Assembly (NCBI RefSeq): GCF_004010195.1
Contig: NC_057718.1
Coordinates: forward strand, 98,717,794-98,781,793
Reading direction: 5' to 3'
DNA: 64,000 nucleotides
DNA from: Chiloscyllium plagiosum
Lineage: Eukaryota
Under the pieces are notes generated by a model, which did no database searches, was not told the origin of the DNA, and saw only the letters and a list, made by a program, of their open reading frames with translations. The translations under genes were made by a program, and so were the position numbers. Numbering within the stretch: position 1 is the stretch's first letter; each line of letters opens with the position of its first letter. This document shows positions 2,993 through 58,740 of the stretch, piece by piece.

Positions 2993-5140
2993 ATTATTAA
3001 TGTTCACTGAATTGCTTACCTCTGTTACCCTTTTTTCAGTTTCAGCTCATCTAAATTTCCACAACCTATCTTCATATCTACATCTGGTCCAACTCTCCCA
3101 TTTCCTTTCTCCTTGCAATTCATGCTAGTTCCCAATTTCCCAATACACCAGTTTAAAATTCTCATCCTTGTGTTATGGCCTCATCTCTTCCCCAGTCAGT
3201 AACCTCCTCTTATTCTACAATGACTCCAATCGTCCTCACTCCTCTAAATCTTACAGATCCCTTCTCCCTTCATGATGTCTGGAGCCCTTCTACTTCCTTC
3301 ACCTCCTTTAATACTCACGTTGACTGGGAGTCGGGACTCTTTCTGGGTCCTGAAATGGAAAGGAAATAGTCACCCTGTGGGATTTTCATTGAGTGTCCCA
3401 CTTCATTGACTTGGAGTCAAGTTCCCTGTCCAATTATGGGCTGTTGAGCCTGGATTGGAGGGTAAGTAATTAAGAAGAGGATTCCTTGTGGTGGTGAACT
3501 CTCACCCACTCTCTTTACGTAAATGGCAAATAGAGCAGCACCCACATCTGGGTACCAGCCATTTAAAAAAAAAGTCATCTATAGGAAGTGACCATCACTG
3601 ACTGGGCCAGCATTTAATTTCTATCCCTAATCGTCCAGAGGGAGTAAAGAGTCAACAACCTTGGTGTGTGTCTGGAGTCACATGCAGGCCAGACCAGGTA
3701 AGATTTTCTTCCTTCAAGGTACATTAGTGAATTAGATTTCTTTGACAATGGTTGGCATCATGCTAAATTTTAATTTTAACTCTAGATTCTCATCGCATTC
3801 AAATTTCACAATCTGACATGGTGAGATTTGAGCTAAAGTCCCCAGGACATTTGTTTGTGTTTCAGGATTATTAATCCAGTGACCATTACTGCCTCTGGGC
3901 TGCTAAACTGCCTCCATTAGTTGGTAAACTGAACATAGAGTGGAAATTCCCAGTCGGCCTCATTTAATTTCTGTCAATAAAGGTTCTCAACAAGCCTTAA
4001 CCGCTCTGAACCGCATGGGGGAAGGTAACACAGTAAGTCCTGAACTGTTCAGGGCAAAATGAGTGGTGTTGGGAACAGGGCTGAAAAACTAAGCCTGGTA
4101 GTTTCAAGGCCAAGCTTCCACAATACTTTTTCCTTAAATTATGTGTCCATTTCTTTTTCCAATTAGGCCTTGTGAAATGTTTTTGAACATTTAACTACAT
4201 TAATGGCTGAACAACAGTGATTAATGAATGATTTAACTGAACAAAGCACTGGTACTTTGTACTGCAAAGTACAAGCTGCACACCCACAATATTAATGTAA
4301 CTGGAATGGGGTGGATCACAATAAAATATGGAACAGTCTGTGCTTTTCATGTATCCATTTGTTAAAAGATCGCCTGTAACAAAAGATTAAAAAAAGACAC
4401 AATAGAAATAGTGCCTCAAGGTTTTCATTTGAAAAAATGCCCAAGGCCTTAAAATGACTACAGGGTGGATTGTGACAACCTGACAAAGGGATTTTAGAAA
4501 TGATATTGAATTAAGATGATTGTCAATTGGAAGAAAATGTATTCTTAGCGTCCAATAGTTCATGAAAACACCCCTTTAAAAAATCACATAGACATACAGC
4601 ACAGAAAGATGTCATTAGGCCCATTGTACCAGTTGGCACTTTGAAAGAGAGAGAGCAGTCACTGATAAGTCCAGACCCCCTCTCCTGTCTGTAACAAGAG
4701 ACTGCATTTGCATAGCTCCTTTAGTACAGTACATTACCCAAGGTTGATGCACAGGATGTTATCAAACAAAATTTAACACCAAGCCATAGGGGAAGATATT
4801 GGAACAGATGGCCAAATGTTTGATCAAAGAGGTAGGTTTACATCAGTGCTGTAAGGGAGGATAAAGAGTTGGAAAGGTGCAGAGCAGGAATTTGGGAGCT
4901 TGAGCCCTCAGCAACATGCCTATCAATGGTGGAGCAATTTGAAATTTATGTCTATGAGACACCATAAATGGAGGAGTGGTGACTGCAGTGCTGGCAGAGA
5001 TTACAATGATATGGAATAGGCATGATGTTGGTGGGCTTTGAGAATGAGGTTGAGAATTTTTCAATTGAAGTGTTATTTAACTGGATTCGTGTGCTGGAAG
5101 AGCACAGAAGTTCAGGCAGCATCCAAAGAGCAGCGAAATC

Positions 5141-5167
5141 GATGTTTCGGGAAAAGCCCTTCATCAG
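5141..5167 (-). ncRNA. Minimal hammerhead ribozyme motif (variant) in the inverted PLE repeat
   Basis: CUGAUGA-A-GGG-CUUUU-CCC-GAAA-CA-UC. Confidence 0.6.
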
Positions 5168-5359
5168 GAATACAGGCAGAGGGCCTGAAGCGTGGAGAGA
5201 TAAGCTAGAGGAGGGTGGGGTGGGGAGAAAATAGCAGGTGGGGGTGGGGAGAAAGTAGCATAGAGTACAATAGGTGAGTGGGGGACAGGATGAAGGTTCC
5301 GGATCAGTGGTGCTGGAAGAGCACAGCAATTCAGGCAGCATCCGAAGACAGGCAAAATC

Positions 5360-5387
5360 GACGTTTCGGGCAAAAGCCCTTCATCAG
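5360..5387 (-). ncRNA. Minimal hammerhead ribozyme motif, intact core
   Basis: CUGAUGA-A-GGGC-UUUU-GCCC-GAAA-CG-UC. Confidence 0.8.
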
Positions 5388-6253
5388 GAATAAAATAGGT
5401 CAGGGAGGAGGGTGGAGTGGATAGGTGGAAAAGATTCAAAAACACCAGCAACGGTTCTCCTTCAAGATCCTCCACTCCACGCTTTCAGCAATGCGCCGGC
5501 ACCTAACCTCTCTACAGTCAGCCCTGCCTCAGCTGAGGGCCAGACTTTCTCAGAATTGCAAAGGACCCACTCTGTACTATATCCTCAGGAGAATTCATAC
5601 TCTCAACAAACAGTATATCAACTCCATCTCAAACATCAAAAACTGTAAGGACAACAAACTTTTATCTACCCACCTCCATAACCAGCACTCCTCAAACATT
5701 CCAGAAGATTCCCCCGGCCTCTGGAACTGCTCGGACGCCATTAGCCATGCGGCTGGTGCAGCTGCCACCCCCACGCTGATTGATGATGTCACTTCCGCCT
5801 CCATCATGGCCACTCCCACAGCCACTTCCACCCCTCACAATTCCTCATGCATCACGTGACATCACTTCCACCCCTCACATCATCGCTGATGTCACACGTT
5901 CAGTGACTTCCACCACCCCTACTGCCATGTCTGCCACCACTTCTGCCCCCACCAACGCCACTCACCTGCATTCTGCTGACACGCGCCCCCACAGATCCCA
6001 CTGTCACCATTCCCAGCCCCCAGAACCCTGAGTGGAACACCACTCCTGCTCATGACTCCACCCCCATTCCCCCCACCATCACACCCACTCCAGTTACCGG
6101 CTCCACCCCCACTCCCAGCTCCACATCCACACCAGATCCCAGCTCCCAGCCCTGCTGAGTTTTCACCATCCCTCTAGACCTTCCCCTCACTGAGGACGAA
6201 CGATCAGTCCTCAACAAAGGACTCACTTCATCCCCCTCCGTCCACGCATCACT

Positions 6254-6521
6254 NNNNNNNNNNNNNNNNNNNNNNNNNNNNNNNNNNNNNNNNNNNNNNN
6301 NNNNNNNNNNNNNNNNNNNNNNNNNNNNNNNNNNNNNNNNNNNNNNNNNNNNNNNNNNNNNNNNNNNNNNNNNNNNNNNNNNNNNNNNNNNNNNNNNNNN
6401 NNNNNNNNNNNNNNNNNNNNNNNNNNNNNNNNNNNNNNNNNNNNNNNNNNNNNNNNNNNNNNNNNNNNNNNNNNNNNNNNNNNNNNNNNNNNNNNNNNNN
6501 NNNNNNNNNNNNNNNNNNNNN
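6254..6521. other. Assembly gap (268 N) inside the PLE
   Basis: Run of N. Confidence 1.
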
Positions 6522-6807
6522 GGAACACTTCAACCCCAGGGCATCAATGTGGACTTCAACAGTTTCCTCATTTCCCCTTCCCCCACCTCACCTAGTTCTA
6601 AACTTCCAGCTCAGCACTGTCCCCATGACTTGTCCGGACTTGTCCTATCTGCCTATCTCCTTTTCCACCTATCCCTCCACTCTCTCCTCCCTGACCTATC
6701 ACCTTCATCCCCTCCCCCACTCACCTATTGTACTCTATGCTACTTTCTCCCCACCCCCACCCTCTTCTAGCTTATCTCTCCATGCTTCAGGCTCTCTGCC
6801 TTTATTC

Positions 6808-6835
6808 CTGATGATGGGCTTTTGCCCGAAAGGTC
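6808..6835 (+). ncRNA. Minimal hammerhead ribozyme motif in the PLE 3' terminal repeat
   Basis: CUGAUGA-U-GGGC-UUUU-GCCC-GAAA-GG-UC. Confidence 0.7.
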
Positions 6836-7450
6836 AATTTTGCTGCTCCTTGGATGCTGCCTGAACTGCTGTGCTCTTCCAGCACCACTAATCCAGAATC
6901 TGGTTTCCAGCATCTGCAGTCATTGTTTTTACCTTGCTATTTAACTGGGGCCAGTTTAGATCAGTAAGTACATAAGTGTTAGCACAATCAGTTTTGTTTG
7001 TTTCTTAATCCTCATGTAGCTGCCCAACATTTTAAAGTCATTTACGGCATCAGCTTTCAAGCATTCCAGATCCTGACAACCAAAGGAAGAAAATTACTCA
7101 TCTTCCCTTTGGAACATTTGTCACTGCTGTATGACTCTCGCTTTGGTCCATTGGTCTGAAGGAATCAATTTTCTCACTGTTTTGAAAACTGCAATGAGAT
7201 CACCATTAATCTTATTAAGCAAACAGTTTTGCAGCGAGCATATGTTTGGACATTACTTCTCTTGCAATCGGCCATATAATGAAATTGTACAGGGATGCAA
7301 ATTAAAAAACAGGCTTCAGGTTAAGTTCCAGTTAAATGAGAGAATTTCCCTGATGGATTATATTAAAACACGGTATATTTTGAGGAATGCACATCATTAA
7401 AACACTGAAGTACTATGGACATTTTGAACTTGAAATCCAAAATGAGTTTT

Positions 7451-10142: not shown

Positions 10143-10506
10143 TGTAATAACTTTTCTGCCTTACTCACTACTTCTTCTGACTCAGTGCTCCAAATTTTGC
10201 ATAAATTGAACCAACTGCAAATGCAGAGACAAGGAGCTGAATTTTCTTAATCTTCAATGTGAGCAGATTTAGAGATGGGGAGCATGGTTGGCATGCCAGG
10301 ATGGCGTTTCAATGCATTCCCTCTACCAGGGATCTGATACCAATCTAACAGCTGCCAAGGAGGAGCTGGAAGCTATCAACTGCCACCTCCACATAATTTG
10401 CATTGGTAGGATGTCTTTTGTGGTGATTTGATGGTGTCTCTGGCTTTTTGCTGACAGTGCAATGGTTCCCTGCCTTGTGCAAAGGTGCCAGTTTAGATGC
10501 ACAGTA

Positions 10507-10703
10507 TCTAGATTAAAGTGGTGCTGGAAAAGCACAGCAGGTCAGGCAGCATCCAAGGAGCAGGAAAATCGACGTTTCGGGCAAAAGCCCTTCAGGAAAT
10601 GTCGATTTTCCTGCTCCTCGGATGCTGCCTGACCTGCTGTGCTTTTCCAGCACCACTCTAATCTAGACTCTGATTTCCAGCATCTGCAGTCCTCACTTTT
10701 GCC
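10507..10703. mobile_element. Head-to-head (fold-back) short PLE-derived element
   Basis: Arms 10507-10578 and 10596-10667 are reverse complements. The flanks TAGATGCACAGTATC and TAGATGCCACAATATC form an imperfect TSD. Both hammerhead cores are broken. Confidence 0.85.
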
Positions 10704-12711
10704 TAGATGCCACAATATCCTTAACACAGGTTTGGGATGAGGTTGACATTTGAACCTGGGTCTCCACCTCCCAAAGAGAGGGTTGCACTCATGAAAGGGT
10801 GCAACCATGGTGAAGATCAATCTAGTGGAGGTCTTCTCCCCTCTGCTCTGATCCACTTCTGTAATTCAGATTATCAAGGTGTCCTTGCTGTTGCCCACCT
10901 GCATCAGCAGTACCTCTGCTTCTAGTGGAATGGTTGAGACTCTAGTGTTACTAGAACTCTGTTGAAACAGCAGGAGGATGACAAGCTCAGAGGTAGACAG
11001 TTAGGAGTCCATCTCCTGGAAGGTGGTTACTCTGTCTTGCTGGTTGCCAGGGTGAATTCAGAACCTCTACTTGGTCCTAAGCTTGGGGTCCCAAAGCCTG
11101 AGAGAAATTTCTGCCCAATGTGTCATGTAATATGACAGGAATCCTAGATACATGAATGGGACAGGTGATGCTGTGGAAGTGTCAAGGAGGTCATTAGGTA
11201 GACAGCCTCTTTACCCAAGGAGTGGTGCCTATAATGTGAGACACAGGGGAGCTTTCAGTGACATGCACACGATAAATTCAACCTTGAAGAAATAGCACCC
11301 ATGCTTTATGAAACCTATCGAACTGACATTATTGTTGTGCCTTTGCTAGTCTCATTTTGCCACCCCACTTCCAATCTTGTCATCTTGCACAATTTCCCTC
11401 ACTTATTATTGTCAGAATTCCGTATTTGTGTCGATTCAGTATTGGGCCTTCCTCTCTTGGTTGCATGTTCTCCACTGCGTCATTTCTTTGTGGGAGGGAA
11501 GGTGAGATTGGGATTAATGACTACTTTAACCTCTTACAGGTTGCCAAACTGGATACACTGGACTGTTGCCAGCATCTAATGTCTTTCTCCCTTTGCAAAC
11601 AGTATAACTGACATCATGGGTGCACTGTGTTTGCGAAACAATCACTTTTTCATTGTATAGGCGTCATTGTGAAATTTGCCCTAGACGCATGTGAGATACG
11701 ATCAAATATTGGATTGATATTAGAAATGTCAACATAACAGGTAACAAGAAATAAAAATGCCATGTAAGGAAAAGAAAATGCAGTTTTGAAGGTGGTGGTT
11801 CTCTGCCCTACAATGTACAGCTTTTATTTTTTAAGGGCAAAATAAACATTAAAAAGGAGGGGTAGTTTTTGACTTATAAAGTGGGAACAGAAATTGCAAG
11901 GCTATGCTGTTGTTCAATCTGTTAGGTCTTGATTGTGCATTCCATCTTCATCTATAGCCAGCTGTGCACCAGGAATGGAGCTTCCCGATTTCTGTCCTTG
12001 TTATGTTATGTATTCCACCCACAGAGCTTGAGCACAGACACATGTAAGCAGGCAGTGCAGTCCCCATATGGATAAGAGTCTTATTTACTCATAACGCACC
12101 ATCTGCTATCTTGTCAGGGTAAGATTAACAAAGTCACACTCCACCAAAAACTGAAAAGCAATACTCACCAGAGCTCCAAGTGCTACTGCATACATTTGAA
12201 TTGCAACACAGTTACTGATACTGTGCAAGAATTAGGTGGTGATGTAGTGCTTGAAGGCGAGACATTAAGACCTGGCGATAAAGAGATTGCACTAATCATA
12301 ACTAATGAGAAATCAGCTGGTATTCCTGAGTTGGCAAAGGATAGTAACCAGCTTTACGAATAAGACTAGCAGATATCTCATCACAAATCCACTGGGATTA
12401 TCTGCTGCTAACCCCAATGGACTTTACAGGGTTGAGGGTGGGGGAGGGTGAGGCCACTTACCACTTAAATGGCAAGTCCCTGCACCATGAGGGGTGTTTC
12501 TGAGACATCCCAGCATTCTAACAAGGCTGTAAAATGTAACTGAATTGGAGACTGGTGATCTGGAGGGGTCATCACAGCTATATCATTCCTTTTCTCCAAC
12601 TCCTGTAATACACTCATATTCTGCCTGGCAGGCCATGAAAAGTCTGGAAATGTGAAGATCCCTGTCATGAGGAATCCATGTCCCTCAACGGGCTTGTTTG
12701 GAATGGTGGTT

Positions 12712-19991: not shown

Positions 19992-20569
19992 TTTTAACAT
20001 AAGCTGTAACATTGAGACAGTAGTGGGGGTCACTGGACCCAAAATGTTAATGCTGATTTATCTCCACAGATGCTGCCAGACCTGTTGAGCATTTCTATCA
20101 ATTTCTGTTTTTGTTTCTGCTGCTGGGTTCCCAGCTCTAGACAGTTCATTTGCCTTGTGTAGTGTCAAGATGCTGGAGACAGATTGGAAAATCCTAGTCA
20201 TCTCTTACTGGGCTGCCTGAACCTTTCACCCTTAAAATGGTCAGTGCTGGAAATAGTGCTGAAATTATCAGACCCTGACTGACTTCATTCCTGGCCTTGG
20301 GTGGGAACTCAAAATCTTGCCTTCTGTGTCACTGCAATATTGCAAAGAATGGCAGCCTATATGCAATTTCAGGCTCTGGCCATGAGGTGGTGCTTCAGTC
20401 AAGCATTAAATGAATTCAATGGAGCAAAAGTAAACTAAAGCAGTTGCTGGAAATCTGAAATAAAAATAGGGTGCGTTGGATGGACTCAAGAGTCCATGGA
20501 GAGAGATACAGACTTAACATCAGGCCAATGACGTTTCATCAGGACTGGCGGTAGTTAGAGAAAGTCGAC

Positions 20570-23926: not shown

Positions 23927-24052
23927 GGGAGAAAGTGAGGTCTGCAGATGCTGGAGATCAGAGCTGAAAATGTGTTGCTGGAAAAGCGCAGCAGGTCAGG
24001 CAGCATCCAGGGAACAGGAGAATCGACGTTTCGGGCATAAGCCCTTCTTCAG
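23927..24052 (-). mobile_element. 126-bp hammerhead-headed PLE-derived element with a perfect 14-bp TSD
   Basis: GAACATTTTATATG at 23913-23926 and 24053-24066. Confidence 0.92.
24025..24052 (-). ncRNA. Minimal hammerhead ribozyme motif, intact core
   Basis: CUGAAGA-A-GGGC-UUAU-GCCC-GAAA-CG-UC. Confidence 0.8.
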
Positions 24053-26441
24053 GAACATTTTATATGCCAGTTTCCAAATGTAATCTCCTTATCAGATGAA
24101 TGAACAAAATCAATTTTGAAAGTCAAGGTGGTTGTCTCAACTGAGTTGTGGGATCAGAGCAGTATAGAAGTGAAATCGTGTCACAATGTCAAGATTTAAG
24201 TAAAAAGTTACAAGGAAGATAGCATTTAAGTAAATGTTTAAACAAAATATCAAAAGGGAGAATGAGAGGGAGGAACAATAAGGTGAACAGGAGGAAGGCA
24301 GTAATTTAAAACAATTTATATATTTTAAATTTTAATTTTATAAAGTTTATCTTTAGGAAGCCAGTGAGCTGATTATAACTGCAGTTTTTGAATAGTTAGA
24401 GCTCTCTTTGTGGCACTGAGTATATTAAAAATATACAACGATAAGGTTTCTGCTTACTGTGTTTGTATTGCAAAATATACTTTATTCATAATAAACCTTT
24501 GAGTAAATACACAGATACTAAATCAATTTTGTGCAGTCTTTACATATCAAGAAAAAACAAACAAGGGAATATGACATTCACTGCAATAGCAAAAAAAGGG
24601 GCATTTCTTATTTATGCAGGACACTATTTACATACATAGAGGCAATGGAAAGGTCTGACAACTGAATGGATCTCCATTATACTTTGGCAGAAAGACGTTA
24701 GGACGCTGCTTACTGTGTTACTGTATGACTCTGTCATTGTGTGTGAGCTGAAAGCTTTCAAAATGATGGTCTCGGAACCTGGAGTGGATTAAACGCGTCT
24801 GTCCATTATGCATGATGAATCTTTGCCTCGGTACTCACATCGTTATGAATGATCATTGCCAAACCGTTTGTTCTGATGTCCCCTATTGAAACAATACATT
24901 TGGTACCGTGTAATCCTAATGAATGGACAAACATAGAGCCGCTGGTGAGATCTGGGATTTCCACAGAAGCCTCTCCCCAGTGGGGTTAGGATCTTCAAGG
25001 GTTAGAGGGCAGTGGACAGAGCCGTGATGTGATCTACAGAAGCTAAAGGCAGGGTTGTTGACTGCAATTTGAAATAAAATATTGACAATGCTTATGGGAA
25101 AACTGTCGGTCCGTTTTATAGCGTGTTTTCTCTCCCAAAAATGGAGAACTGCGTCATTTCCTGAGAATGTTTGCATTCAGCTGCCTCAGAGAGGACTCCC
25201 TGCAGACCAAGACATATCTTAATCGGTGAATTGTCAACAAACCTCAAACTTTGCGTGAGGTCCGAGTTAACTTCCCGGAGGCGGTCGATTCCTCACATAG
25301 TGGGGTTTGTTGTTGAAAAAAAGATGTTCAATGTAACAGGAGAGCCAATAATAAACGCCTGGTTTACTCTAGAGTTTGGATTACCTCACAATCCCTTCAA
25401 ATCTGAAAAGGTGACTGAAGATTTACAATTAACCAGGGCAAATATCTCAACCATTTCCCCACCCTGGCTTCAAAATAGAGTTGCATTTAGCAGTGCAGAA
25501 GAACAGATTACTGGTACAATTTGGCGAGTTCAGTTCATTTCAGAACAGATGGTTTTGTTGACGGTTTACAGAATGGAAATACCTGCGTATGCTGGAAATC
25601 TGACCAAAAAAAAGCTGTCAGTGTACAACAGGTCAGGCAGCGTCTGTAGAGTGGAACAACGCTTTATCCCTGTGAAAGAGACATGAACTTGAAAAATTAA
25701 TTCGCTTTCTCTCCCCACCTCGCCTGCTGAACGTTTCCAGCGTTTTCTTTTTCTGTCATTAATTCTGTGTTGGTACTTGGAGCGTTGCCCAGTGCCCACA
25801 TACTGAGCCCTCCAGTTTTCAGTTAGGATTGCAAGTCATATCCCACAACAGTATTACAGTTACATTTCTTACTCATCATTGTACGCTGGAAACCACACCA
25901 GAGCAAAGTTAACGGTTTTTGTGAGACAAAGAATTAAAGCAAGGTTCCTTAGTGTAGAGAACAATCAACAAACAATTTATCGTAAATTCTGGACACGTTA
26001 GATGCATGAATATAATTGATGCATATAAGGTCCGAGTGCTTCTTTTAAGGTAAGTGGCGTTCGGGGTACAATATTTCTACTCAGCCCTTTCCAACTGCGA
26101 AATTCTTTAGGCACATTCCTATGAAACGAGTTGTTAGGACCTTCAAAGTGTTATAAAGTCCTGAGTTCATCAAATAAACTGTATTTAGATCGTCACACAC
26201 GGGGAGAGAAAGGAAAACAGGATCTGCAGGAAATATTTAAAAGCTAGGATATTTTTAACTATTAGTTTTAGTTCTTTCACTATCAGTCCTTGATCAAAGC
26301 TGGAGAAGTTGTTGAGCCTCCTTTGTCGAACTGCTGTGATTTCTCCAGAGAAAGTGCTCCTAGAGGCGACAGGGCTGATACTGTCGTGACAGCACAGACA
26401 CTGGAATAATGATGCTGAGGGGAAGGCAGAAATCCTGAGAG

Positions 26442-33152: not shown

Positions 33153-34647
33153 TAAAAGATGCATCCTTTTGACCTGTCAAGCATCCTCAGCATATTCATG
33201 TCTTGCCCAATGGTGCATCTGGCTTTTTGAATTGTTTTCACTTTTTCTCTTGTGGTCTCATTGGTTAGGTTCTTCATGGGTGTCATCCACCTTTTCAACA
33301 GGTACCTCTTGGCCCTGAGCAAATACTTGATAGGTGTGCTGTTAGTTGTGAAGGGAGGATGAGTTGCTTCAGGACTATATGGCCATGAATTTTGCACACA
33401 CTTCTATAAAGATCCCTTTACCATTGTACATTGATGGAGCTGGAGTTCATGTGGTTGATGAGTACTCCTGGGAGATGAGAGATTGCTTCAATTGCAGAAA
33501 TCAATGATGCCCTGTATTTGTGCCAAGCTAGCGAGAACTGCAACCCTGAGTGCCCAGTCATTCTGACTGGCACCATCACAGGAAAAGTGTACGTAACTTC
33601 TGGTTCTGGCAGACAAGCCATCATTTGCCTCTCAAATGCATTTGTGCGCCAGCTACCGTACGATCCTCCAATTGTCTCTGGTGAAGTCCTGGAAAGATCC
33701 AAAGGCACAAACATTGAAGCTGGAGGTGTTGTAGATGGTAAAGTATGGCCACCAGACCAACAGGTGCCAATCTAACAAATGTAACTTAAGACCCTGAGCC
33801 TTCTTGAGAAGTTACTGTTCCCATGTGTTGAGGAGGTTTATCCTCTACCTGCATATTCTTTTTAACAGGTTCTGCCTCCTGTGAACTGCACCTGTCTGCT
33901 GAATCACCTTTTCCTGTGGAGCTGCAGGACTGTGAGCAACCAACTGTCACTGCTTCTGGTGCTTTTGCTCTGTTGCTAGAGATCACCTTGGTTCTTGCAT
34001 GAAGACCAAAGTAAAACAGCTCAAGTTGTCCCTTTATTGATCTGACAGCTGAGAGCTTCTGAGCGCAGAACAGACACAAAATCCTCGAAAGTGTAGGTGA
34101 CCCCTTCTGAAATGCGTACAGTCAAGGGTGTCAACTCTTTTGTTTTTCTCCTGCACATTTTTCATGCTCATTCAAAATGTTAGTGTTGGAAAATATAAAA
34201 TCTCTCTTTCTATTTGCACAGTACTAACCACTGGAAGTCACAGATTTAAATTTTCTCCACTCTGTCATAGGTGTGTGAAGCTCAACTTCAGACAACCTCT
34301 CAGCCAACATTGTGAACTTTCCATTTCATAGCACCTATCCTTATGGTTTGTCTGAATGCAGTTACTGATTTCATGCTAACTGCATTTCCGACATAACAGA
34401 AATTAGCTTTGCTATTGGGAAACATATCTTTAGAAGGTGCTGTAGCAAATGTTTGTCTCAGTGCATAATTTCTACGTATTCAATTCAATTTGAATTTGGC
34501 TATTTTTGTCAGTGTGACTGGAGAAATGTTATTTGACTTGTACATCTCACAGTCACAGTCTGCCATGTTTTGAAATGTCCTTCCTGGAGAGGCTGTGCTT
34601 TGGTGGTAGACTGGCTTACTACAAATTGTAGGTATAGCCAGTATGTT

Positions 34648-34863
34648 GCTGAAAATGTGTTGCTGGAAAAGCGCAGCAGGTCAGGCAGCATCCAAGGAAC
34701 AGGAGAATCGACGTTTTGGGCATAAGCCCTTCTTCAGGATTCCTGAAGGGCTTATGCCCGAAACGTCGATTCTCCTGTTCCTTGGATGCTGCCTGACCTG
34801 CTGCGCTTTTCCAGCAACACATTTTCAGCTCTGATCTCCAGCATCTGCAGCCCTCACTTTCTC
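34648..34863. mobile_element. Head-to-head (fold-back) short PLE-derived element with a perfect 13-bp TSD
   Basis: About 90-bp inverted arms centred near 34740; TAGCCAGTATGTT at 34635-47 and 34864-76. Confidence 0.92.
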
Positions 34864-35143
34864 TAGCCAGTATGTTCTTTGTTTCAGTGTGAGGCATATT
34901 AGTGATGAGCAAGTGAACAATTTTATTATCACAGATAATCACAGATTGGTGCAGAGTTCTTGAAGGAACAACGTTACAAGATCATAAGACCATAGAATGT
35001 AGGGGCAGAAGATGGCCATTCAGCCCATCAGTTCTGTTCTGACTTTCAATGAGGTTATGACTGATCTGATAATCCTATATTCCACTTTCTTGCCTTATCT
35101 TTATAACCCTTGAATCCTTTACTGACTAAATGTTTATCTATGT

Positions 35144-35459: not shown

Positions 35460-35518
35460 TCAGGGAGCAATTATATTTGTATGAATGCTTTCACTTCTCA
35501 ACACTGCTATCCTTAAGG

Positions 35519-35680
35519 AGAAAGTGAGGACTGCAGATGCTGGAGACCAGAGTCAACAGTGTGGTGCTGGAAAAGCACAGCTATGCTAACATTGATGAAG
35601 GGCTTATGCTCAAAACGTTGACTCTCCTGCTCCTTGGATACTGCCTGACTGGCTGTGCTTGTTCAGCGCCACATGTTTTG
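35519..35680. mobile_element. Older fold-back PLE-derived element with TSD
   Basis: Flanked by ACACTG(C/A)TATCCTTAAGG (35501, 35681); decayed core TTGATGAAGGGCTTATGCTCAAAACGTT. Confidence 0.8.
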
Positions 35681-35851
35681 ACACTGATATCCTTAAGGCT
35701 ACTTAACTTAAATTTGTAGTTTTTTGCATTTTTGTCCCAAATCCTGGACAGCTTTTTTGTGAATTAACCCACGTCCAATCAAAATGGAGCTGGAAATTTA
35801 CAAATATGTTGTTTCTTAACAACCTGTGGAGAGTTAGTTTAAACTATATTT

Positions 35852-58300: not shown

Positions 58301-58501
58301 CTCTCAATACTCCAAAGGAGCCTCATTAACGTCCTGGGAAATCTCAACATGACGTCCCAACTCCTATACTCAAGGGTCTAAGCAATGAAGGCAAATGTGC
58401 TAAATGCCTTTTTAGTCACCCTGTCTACCTGTGACACCACTTTCAAAGAACTTTGTCATTGAACCCTAGTTCTCCCTAGTGTTCGACAACACTACCCTGG
58501 G

Positions 58502-58703
58502 GAGAAAGTGAGGTCTGCAGATGCTGGAGATCAGAGCTGAAAATGTGTTGCTGGAAAAGCGCAGCGGGTCAGGCAGCATCCAGGGAACAGGAGAATCGAC
58601 GTTTCGGGCATAAGCCCTTCTTCAGGAGCTTATGCCCGAAACGTCGATTCTCCTGTTCCCTGGATGCTGCCTGACCTGCTGCGCTGTTCCAGCAACACAT
58701 TTT
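58502..58703. mobile_element. Head-to-head PLE-derived element with 15-bp TSD, inserted in CR1
   Basis: CAACACTACCCTGGG at 58487 and 58704; intact minus-strand hammerhead core at 58598-58625. Confidence 0.92.
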
Positions 58704-58740
58704 CAACACTACCCTGGGCCCTACCATTAACTGTATAAAC

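Follow-up and report, generated by a model that had tools for sequence, protein, structure and literature searches.

The short head-to-head repeats of Chiloscyllium plagiosum are best read as single insertions of a Penelope-like element (PLE) in which reverse transcription started twice, once from each strand of a staggered target cut. We give this reading a probability of about 0.7. Under it, a target cut staggered by about 15 bp would let each strand prime one reverse transcription. The first would start at the tail end of the repeat unit (position 128-130) and the second about 35 nt upstream (near position 93), both sites being internal on the RNA. The two cDNAs would copy RNA from the same source, whether one molecule twice, two identical pLTRs or sibling transcripts. 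They would both extend toward the 5' end of that RNA, presumably at the 5' edge of its hammerhead, and would be joined head to head through microhomologies of 1-3 nt or short templated patches. The window, by which we mean the whole 64,000-nt stretch of contig NC_057718.1 that was analysed, holds four such dimers; loci elsewhere in the genome are cited by L numbers.

Unit positions are counted on a natural single full copy of 128 nt at 23928-24055 (minus strand), read along the hammerhead strand. The focal dimer begins with a 13-bp target site duplication (TSD) at 34635-34647 that is copied exactly at 34864-34876. Between these lie a tail-less arm on the minus strand (34648-34739, unit 93 to 2), whose hammerhead core GAAA has become AAAA, and a tail arm on the plus strand (34740-34863, unit 1-127), whose CUGANGA core is short of 3 nt and whose tail occupies about 34830-34863. 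The young 58502 dimer (58487-58718), sitting within an older repeat, has an exact 15-bp TSD (58487-501/58704-18), a minus-strand tail arm with an intact hammerhead core (58501-58627, unit 128 to 2) and a plus-strand tail-less arm (58628-58705, unit 14-91). The 10507 dimer (10494-10719) belongs to an older subfamily; its tail-less arm (about 10507-10598, minus strand, unit about 93 to 1) has a core minus 3 nt and meets the tail arm (10596-10704, plus strand, unit 24-132) at a 3-nt microhomology. Its degenerate TSD (about 10494-508/10704-19) runs to about 15 bp with one indel and one mismatch, and has an automated score of only 7. The 35519 dimer (35501-35698), also older, is enclosed by an 18-bp TSD with one mismatch (35501-18/35681-98) and consists of a minus-strand tail arm (35517-35581, unit 128 to 64), an 11-nt spacer and a plus-strand tail-less arm from 35593 (unit 5 to about 93). 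Given as tail-less/tail arm, the four junctions are 2/1 at 34648, 14/2 at 58502, 1/24 at 10507 and, across the spacer, 5/64 at 35519.

A first-pass annotation of the window had described four head-to-head copies, each within one TSD, and all four are real, with target duplications of 13-18 bp. It called them near-perfect hairpins, which fits 34648, 58502 and 10507, where the inverted arms measure 85 nt at 99% identity (34648-34829), 83 nt at 95% (58533-58710) and 77 nt at 94% (10502-10672), but not 35519, where the arms overlap by only about 35 nt and which is missing from the long inverted-repeat listing. One arm of each pair was said to be complete; this is true of the 3' end only, since at the 5' end 23 nt are missing from the tail arm of 10507 and 63 nt from that of 35519. 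With a folding energy of -183.8 kcal/mol (z -24.9) the 34.6-kb copy is equalled by none of 200 shuffles, and as an individual it gives no sign of being special. The hairpins at 34.7 and 58.6 kb had been placed inside a putative neuronal intron. A Pfam scan of the 150 longest among 323 non-repeat frames gave no match, and a gene may still be present here. In a comparison of the 58.5-kb dimer with three sets of contigs and a single-cell RNA run, other copies swamped the signal; the types of change were symmetric and occurred in DNA too.

Several other observations concern the window. A large head-to-head PLE insertion of about 1.9 kb, absent from the earlier list of dimers, occupies 5071-6948 between copies of a 14-bp TSD with one mismatch. 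Its left side consists of tail-less arms in partial tandem (minus strand), and its interior and right side hold the N-terminal region of an ORF, an assembly gap (6254-6521), a 3' UTR and a tail arm (plus strand). Loss of 3 nt from CUGANGA, in one arm only and beside the junction, was seen at 34740-34748 and 10590-10598, and also at L002, L005, L007, L017, L022, L023 and L027, a query-biased set. At 232-2038 on the minus strand are what we take, from the look of their translations, to be L1-like ORF1 and endonuclease fragments; ORF1 has no Pfam match.

From its sequence we identify the 128-nt unit as the hammerhead-bearing pLTR and tail of an endonuclease-bearing, protein-coding PLE with a GIY-YIG domain and a putative RT domain. 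Many copies of the unit run upstream into a common 3' UTR and from there into an ORF whose C-terminal part is a GIY-YIG domain (PF01541, E 1.6e-5, 25.5 bits against a cut-off of 22.6). RVT_1 matches, at E 0.003-0.006 and so under the Pfam cut-off, were found in both of the two partial ORFs. The RT-type motifs YIDD and GxxMG are visible in the translations, and GIY-YIG and RT motifs lie in one frame in L242 and L247. The translations also have a linker, C-x4-C-x2-C, upstream of GIY-YIG. The available part of PMC8557442 gives a CX2-5CxxC linker in this place as a feature of the Neptune/Nematis clades, and we call the parent Neptune-type as a label taken from the linker motif alone. The pLTR forms a partial tandem, the unit occurring downstream of the endonuclease ORF and also upstream of the N-terminal region of the ORF. 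At 9 of 20 loci chosen by that N-terminal region the unit lies ahead of the ORF and continues past 130 into a common leader; because of this continuation both observed 3' ends are internal on the RNA. A separate SINE-like or retrozyme non-autonomous family was considered and rejected, since the unit is contiguous with the 3' UTR and leader of the PLE.

The hammerhead is oriented sense to the ORF. We read its motif from the letters; stem II folds, and the motif matches the minimal hammerhead as PMC4209133, in the portion available, defines it, down to CUGANGA, an extra base before stem II, a 4-bp stem II and a palindromic remnant of helix III. It is unlike that description in that only one of the eight arms of the window's four dimers has an intact core. 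An Rfam search returned no hammerhead match and only sub-threshold miRNA hairpins, the best microRNA precursor scoring 40.9 bits against a gathering score of 104. The tail end, in L257-L275 and in the window copies, has a pyrimidine tract followed by an AG in the leader that resembles a splice acceptor; no donor was identified there. If this AG is a true acceptor, the template would be unspliced RNA and the outer start site the end of an intron. Internal tandem repeats of 60-100 nt occur in the RT or endonuclease coding region of L111-L120, L235, L240 and L255, and are either RT slippage or assembly effects. An older related repeat, at 20062-20101 of the window and at many random loci, has only unit 49-80 in common; it is probably another PLE family and was kept out of the counts.

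The genome-wide sample comprised 160 evenly spaced 10-kb stretches of the 21 largest contigs, 1,545,781 called bases in all. Among the 306 arms in these 1.55 Mb there are 65 head-to-head pairs within 60 nt and no pair that close in any other orientation. Looser settings gave one same-strand pair within the sample's first half, the pattern-picked loci yielded a single close tail-to-tail pair, and the neighbours in the window include one tail-to-tail and one same-strand. The density is about 42 dimers per Mb, which, if it holds, would mean dimers on the order of 10^5 in the genome. A 35-mer taken from the youngest subfamily has 62,467 exact occurrences, and a control pattern has 0. TSDs with a score of at least 10 enclose 36 of 63 random dimers (two at locus edges were dropped), 9 of 12 that were pattern-picked and 29 of 31 that were query-selected, against 4 of 300 random position pairs; in young copies they are mostly 13-16 bp long. 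This bears out the earlier claim of single insertion events. One structure, at L073:528-646, has two tail-less arms, an inverted repeat that extends into flanking DNA and no TSD, and is apparently a different, DNA-level inverted duplication.

The same counts weigh on the ideas that the arms are independent insertions that landed side by side, that they owe their likeness to later gene conversion, or that they are artefacts of assembly. There are indeed assembly gaps inside long copies, and no piece spanned the 58.5-kb stretch. Against this, both arms lie inside one TSD, the 65 close pairs are all head to head, and the mutations of the arms are mostly unshared. An empty paralogous site also exists: L103, a copy of the repeat that hosts 58502, has the TSD sequence once (such sites were sought for all four window dimers and found for this one only). 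We find independent insertion, later conversion or artefact scarcely credible.

A more serious question is whether the second arm is a copy of the first. In a snap-back, a tail-primed cDNA would reach the 5' end of the RNA, fold, copy itself as far as about 93 and join the other target end, and later deletions at the centre of the hairpin would scramble the junction. The self-priming proposed in the available text of PMC3846280 is close to this, and the first-pass annotation had suggested a snap-back at the ribozyme hairpin. If this happened, the short arm should be contained within the long one and have its fixed end at the junction, whereas two primings predict arms anchored at their outer ends and independent in length.

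A 30-40-nt tail at one end with an adjacent inverted copy inside one TSD, that is, one tail arm paired with one tail-less arm, was found in 70 of 75 dimers (random and pattern-picked together); three have no tail and two have two. The tail-less outer end has a median of 93.5 in dimers and 93 in arms with no close partner, the latter including dimers with tiny partner arms (56 vs 56, KS p 0.62), and 7 of the 75 short arms end at 46-72. Among 25 loci found with an RT query, 14 have an end at 91-99 on the downstream side of the RT gene (gap-free in 5 cases), 6 end at 128 and 5 are without a usable end. Because the ends of partnerless and RT-containing copies match, we take position 93 or so to be a separate start site, templated by the RNA. 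A snap-back gives no reason to stop at about 93, where long RT-containing copies start.

The reach of the arms toward the 5' end tells a similar story. With a margin of at least 4 nt, and leaving out 5 of 79 dimers that do not pair tail with no tail, the tail-less arm reaches further in 47 of 74, the tail arm in 18 and the two are level in 9. A snap-back accommodates the 18, 58502 among them, but needs a later deletion for the 47 that are not nested. Young copies split 20 (tail-less further), 9 (tail further) and 2 (level), and the youngest class 8/6/0 of 14, with 34648 mis-scored by its 3-nt loss and truly level. A small inverted remnant accompanies 18 of the 92 arms that look single and 1 of the 94 controls. 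Six of the 18 remnants are tail stubs that end at 80-98 and face a tail-less arm, with TSD scores of at least 10 in L164, L169 and L205 and of 9 in one more; in the three named loci a stub ending at 81-91 faces an arm that reaches to -33, -308 and -126, so that the arms barely overlap. Another six are anchored near 90 and face a tail arm. The remaining six have their anchor at the junction, and two of these (L163, L213) lie within a TSD. Junctions can also lie far from the ribozyme: the arms of L119, which is gap-free, run to about -754 and -421, L157 is joined at -179/-80, L239 has a gap inside and a tail arm of 113 nt that abuts RT-coding sequence directly, and the 1.9-kb insertion at 5071-6948 is a further case. 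A snap-back would need to have lost hundreds of bases in L169, L239 and L119.

It is the fixed tail/tail-less pairing, the end at about 93, the non-nested arms, the barely overlapping inserts and the far junctions that favour two primings. A snap-back is disfavoured because the outer end of the short arm matches an independent RT start site, because the short arm often holds 5' sequence missing from the long arm, and because this arrangement is also seen where the junction is hundreds of bases away from the ribozyme. The arguments for it are not empty. The arms agree in their alleles, 20 of 74 junctions have microhomologies of 1-3 nt that are possible hairpin stems, the short arms of L163 and L213 are anchored at the junction, and some junction patches, as in L203, are pieces of the sense strand. 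Hairpin-centre deletions after insertion could make the same uneven junctions from a fold-back, and the recurrent 3-nt loss in one arm hints at such remodelling. The near-even split in the youngest class, the junction-anchored remnants and the ends at 46-72 also count against two primings. On balance we hold a snap-back to be unlikely, and the fold-back at the ribozyme that was first suggested is probably wrong.

That both arms come from a common source is a separate matter. In 60 random dimers arm-to-arm identity is 0.909, against a same-subfamily mean of 0.881, and is the higher in 43, which agrees with what the first-pass annotation expected. For the window dimers, 2, 8 and 27 of 109 foreign arms match as well or better; as foreign arms match equally well, identity alone is weak evidence. 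Alleles are more telling. In 59 young dimers (29 query-selected, 18 random, 10 pattern-picked and 2 from the window) the arms are discordant at three polymorphic non-CpG sites in 3 of 56, 2 of 56 and 2 of 49, where free mixing expects 28, 20 and 9; at one 50:50 site 53 of 56 are concordant. The same diagnostic bases had been claimed for both arms of each window pair, and this holds overall, but the 58502 arms differ at position 72, which is variable between copies. Private changes number 131 unshared and 5 shared, so the concordance dates from insertion, and gene conversion after insertion is rejected. The five shared changes are two C>T at CpG, one G>T and two T>G; no A-to-G signature common to both arms was seen among them. 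The discordant sites, 7 where later transitions would give 1.8 (p 0.003), speak against the use of strictly one template in all dimers, and a snap-back leaves this excess unaccounted for. Either two templates may be used in a minority of dimers or the allele sites may mutate fast. The first-pass annotation was thus right about single events and about a shared template.

Concordant alleles would also be expected if a few dimeric non-autonomous elements of single origin were copied whole, as palindromic masters. Certain junctions do recur: 3/13 in L189, L209, L229 and L230, 1/6 in the A-type L163 and the B-type L094, and the type with the 3-nt loss, which shows that some remodelling or slippage occurs. 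Identical junctions, however, are found on different haplotypes or subfamilies and as mirror forms, junctions as a whole are very heterogeneous, and sizes are continuous from stubs to kilobases. We consider such masters quite improbable. Over 74 dimers the junctions comprise 20 with microhomology, 7 that are blunt and 47 with insertions. The insertions include decayed element sequence in old copies, and several in young copies are re-copied pieces of arm ends.

In the 45 dimers with clean junctions, 38 of the 90 inner ends fall at -6 to 5, 28 at 6-14, 6 at 15-31, 10 at 32-40, 3 at 41-70 and 5 further upstream. The pivot had been put at the hammerhead 5' edge or stem II, and 66 of the 90 are indeed there. 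The main cluster marks the 5' edge of the hammerhead, not the cut site, which suggests that the RNA would start at this edge. The ribozyme is predicted to cut after 31, and the group at 32-40 begins immediately beyond that point (p 0.004, for an interval picked post hoc). These ends may record cleaved RNA or an RT stall, and are an indirect hint of self-cleavage by the ribozyme. The long hairpin would probably mask the ribozyme.

Two primings can be taken one step further, to a scheme that we rate at a little under even odds. A dimer of the PLE protein would occupy a single RNA, its two RT sites spaced by about 35 nt, and either strand of a 15-bp staggered cut would prime one of these sites. 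The leader would start near 93 and the trailer at the tail, and the trailer would often stall where the leader began, leaving the stubs at 80-98. Every insertion would then be two-armed, and the tail, the inverted pLTR, the single copies (tailed or tail-less) and the roughly 10^5 mini-hairpins would be products of one reaction, with a minority recording ribozyme cleavage between or before the passes.

A precedent of a kind exists outside the PLEs. In the twin priming of L1 that Ostertag and Kazazian are said to have described in 2001, the other strand of the target also acts as a primer, so that two cDNAs are made and meet head to head within a single TSD; reportedly, L1 inversions have no duplication of sequence and variable priming sites. 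The arms described here differ in that they overlap and in that the second site is nearly fixed.

The architecture itself is already known, and linking the published pieces into twin priming is a step that we infer ourselves. The available text of Arkhipova et al. (2013, PMC3846280) describes pLTRs in inverted orientation, one of which carries a tail, within a single TSD, and explains them by self-priming on a possibly antisense template. This structure is also drawn in Craig et al. (2021, PMC8557442, Fig. 2 legend), whose text, as far as available, leaves its origin open and calls for mechanistic work. The dimers are like these EN+ PLEs in their head-to-head copy, 30-40-nt tail at one end, single TSD and pLTR hammerhead, as the earlier description of them as a miniature form of PLE inverted termini had it. 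They are unlike them in being mostly 200-240 bp long, in having no ORF and in their density. In the portions available, both papers invoke self-priming or endonuclease resolution, not two primings at two start sites. PAc, an Anolis element of Poseidon type, supplies much of what is needed. According to the available part of Frangieh et al. (2024, PMC11167929) the purified protein nicks and extends both strands, starts RT in vitro at two internal positions that bracket the tail, and uses uncleaved RNA, hammerhead cleavage not being needed. Its predicted protein dimer, two internal starts and extension of both strands are like our reading. PAc differs in clade and in showing no strand bias in the start site, and the same portion of that paper does not address inverted insertions; the fixed pairing of two sites is a feature of the dimers here. 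Non-LTR retrozymes (bioRxiv 10.64898/2026.07.22.740005) are, in the available part of that preprint, likewise short, non-coding, hammerhead-bearing repeats related to PLE pLTRs. They form head-to-tail tandem arrays of at least two units with complete hammerheads, unlike the arms here, and no two of the 306 arms in our random sample lie close together on one strand. A literature search poor in subscription papers, with supplements excluded, turned up no statement of twin priming for PLEs. The high copy number of these miniatures, together with the fixed way in which their two start sites are paired, makes the mechanism directly testable.

The origin of the inverted ends and one-sided tail of PLEs is an open question; PMC11167929, in its available part, provides the two starts and leaves the inversions unexplained. 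The dimers also mean a large genomic load of perfect hairpins of 70-90 bp, which may possibly affect RNA editing and genome stability. Some 10^5 short, TSD-bounded, two-armed insertions would be a large natural record of the PLE insertion reaction, and they offer predictions for the in vitro system.
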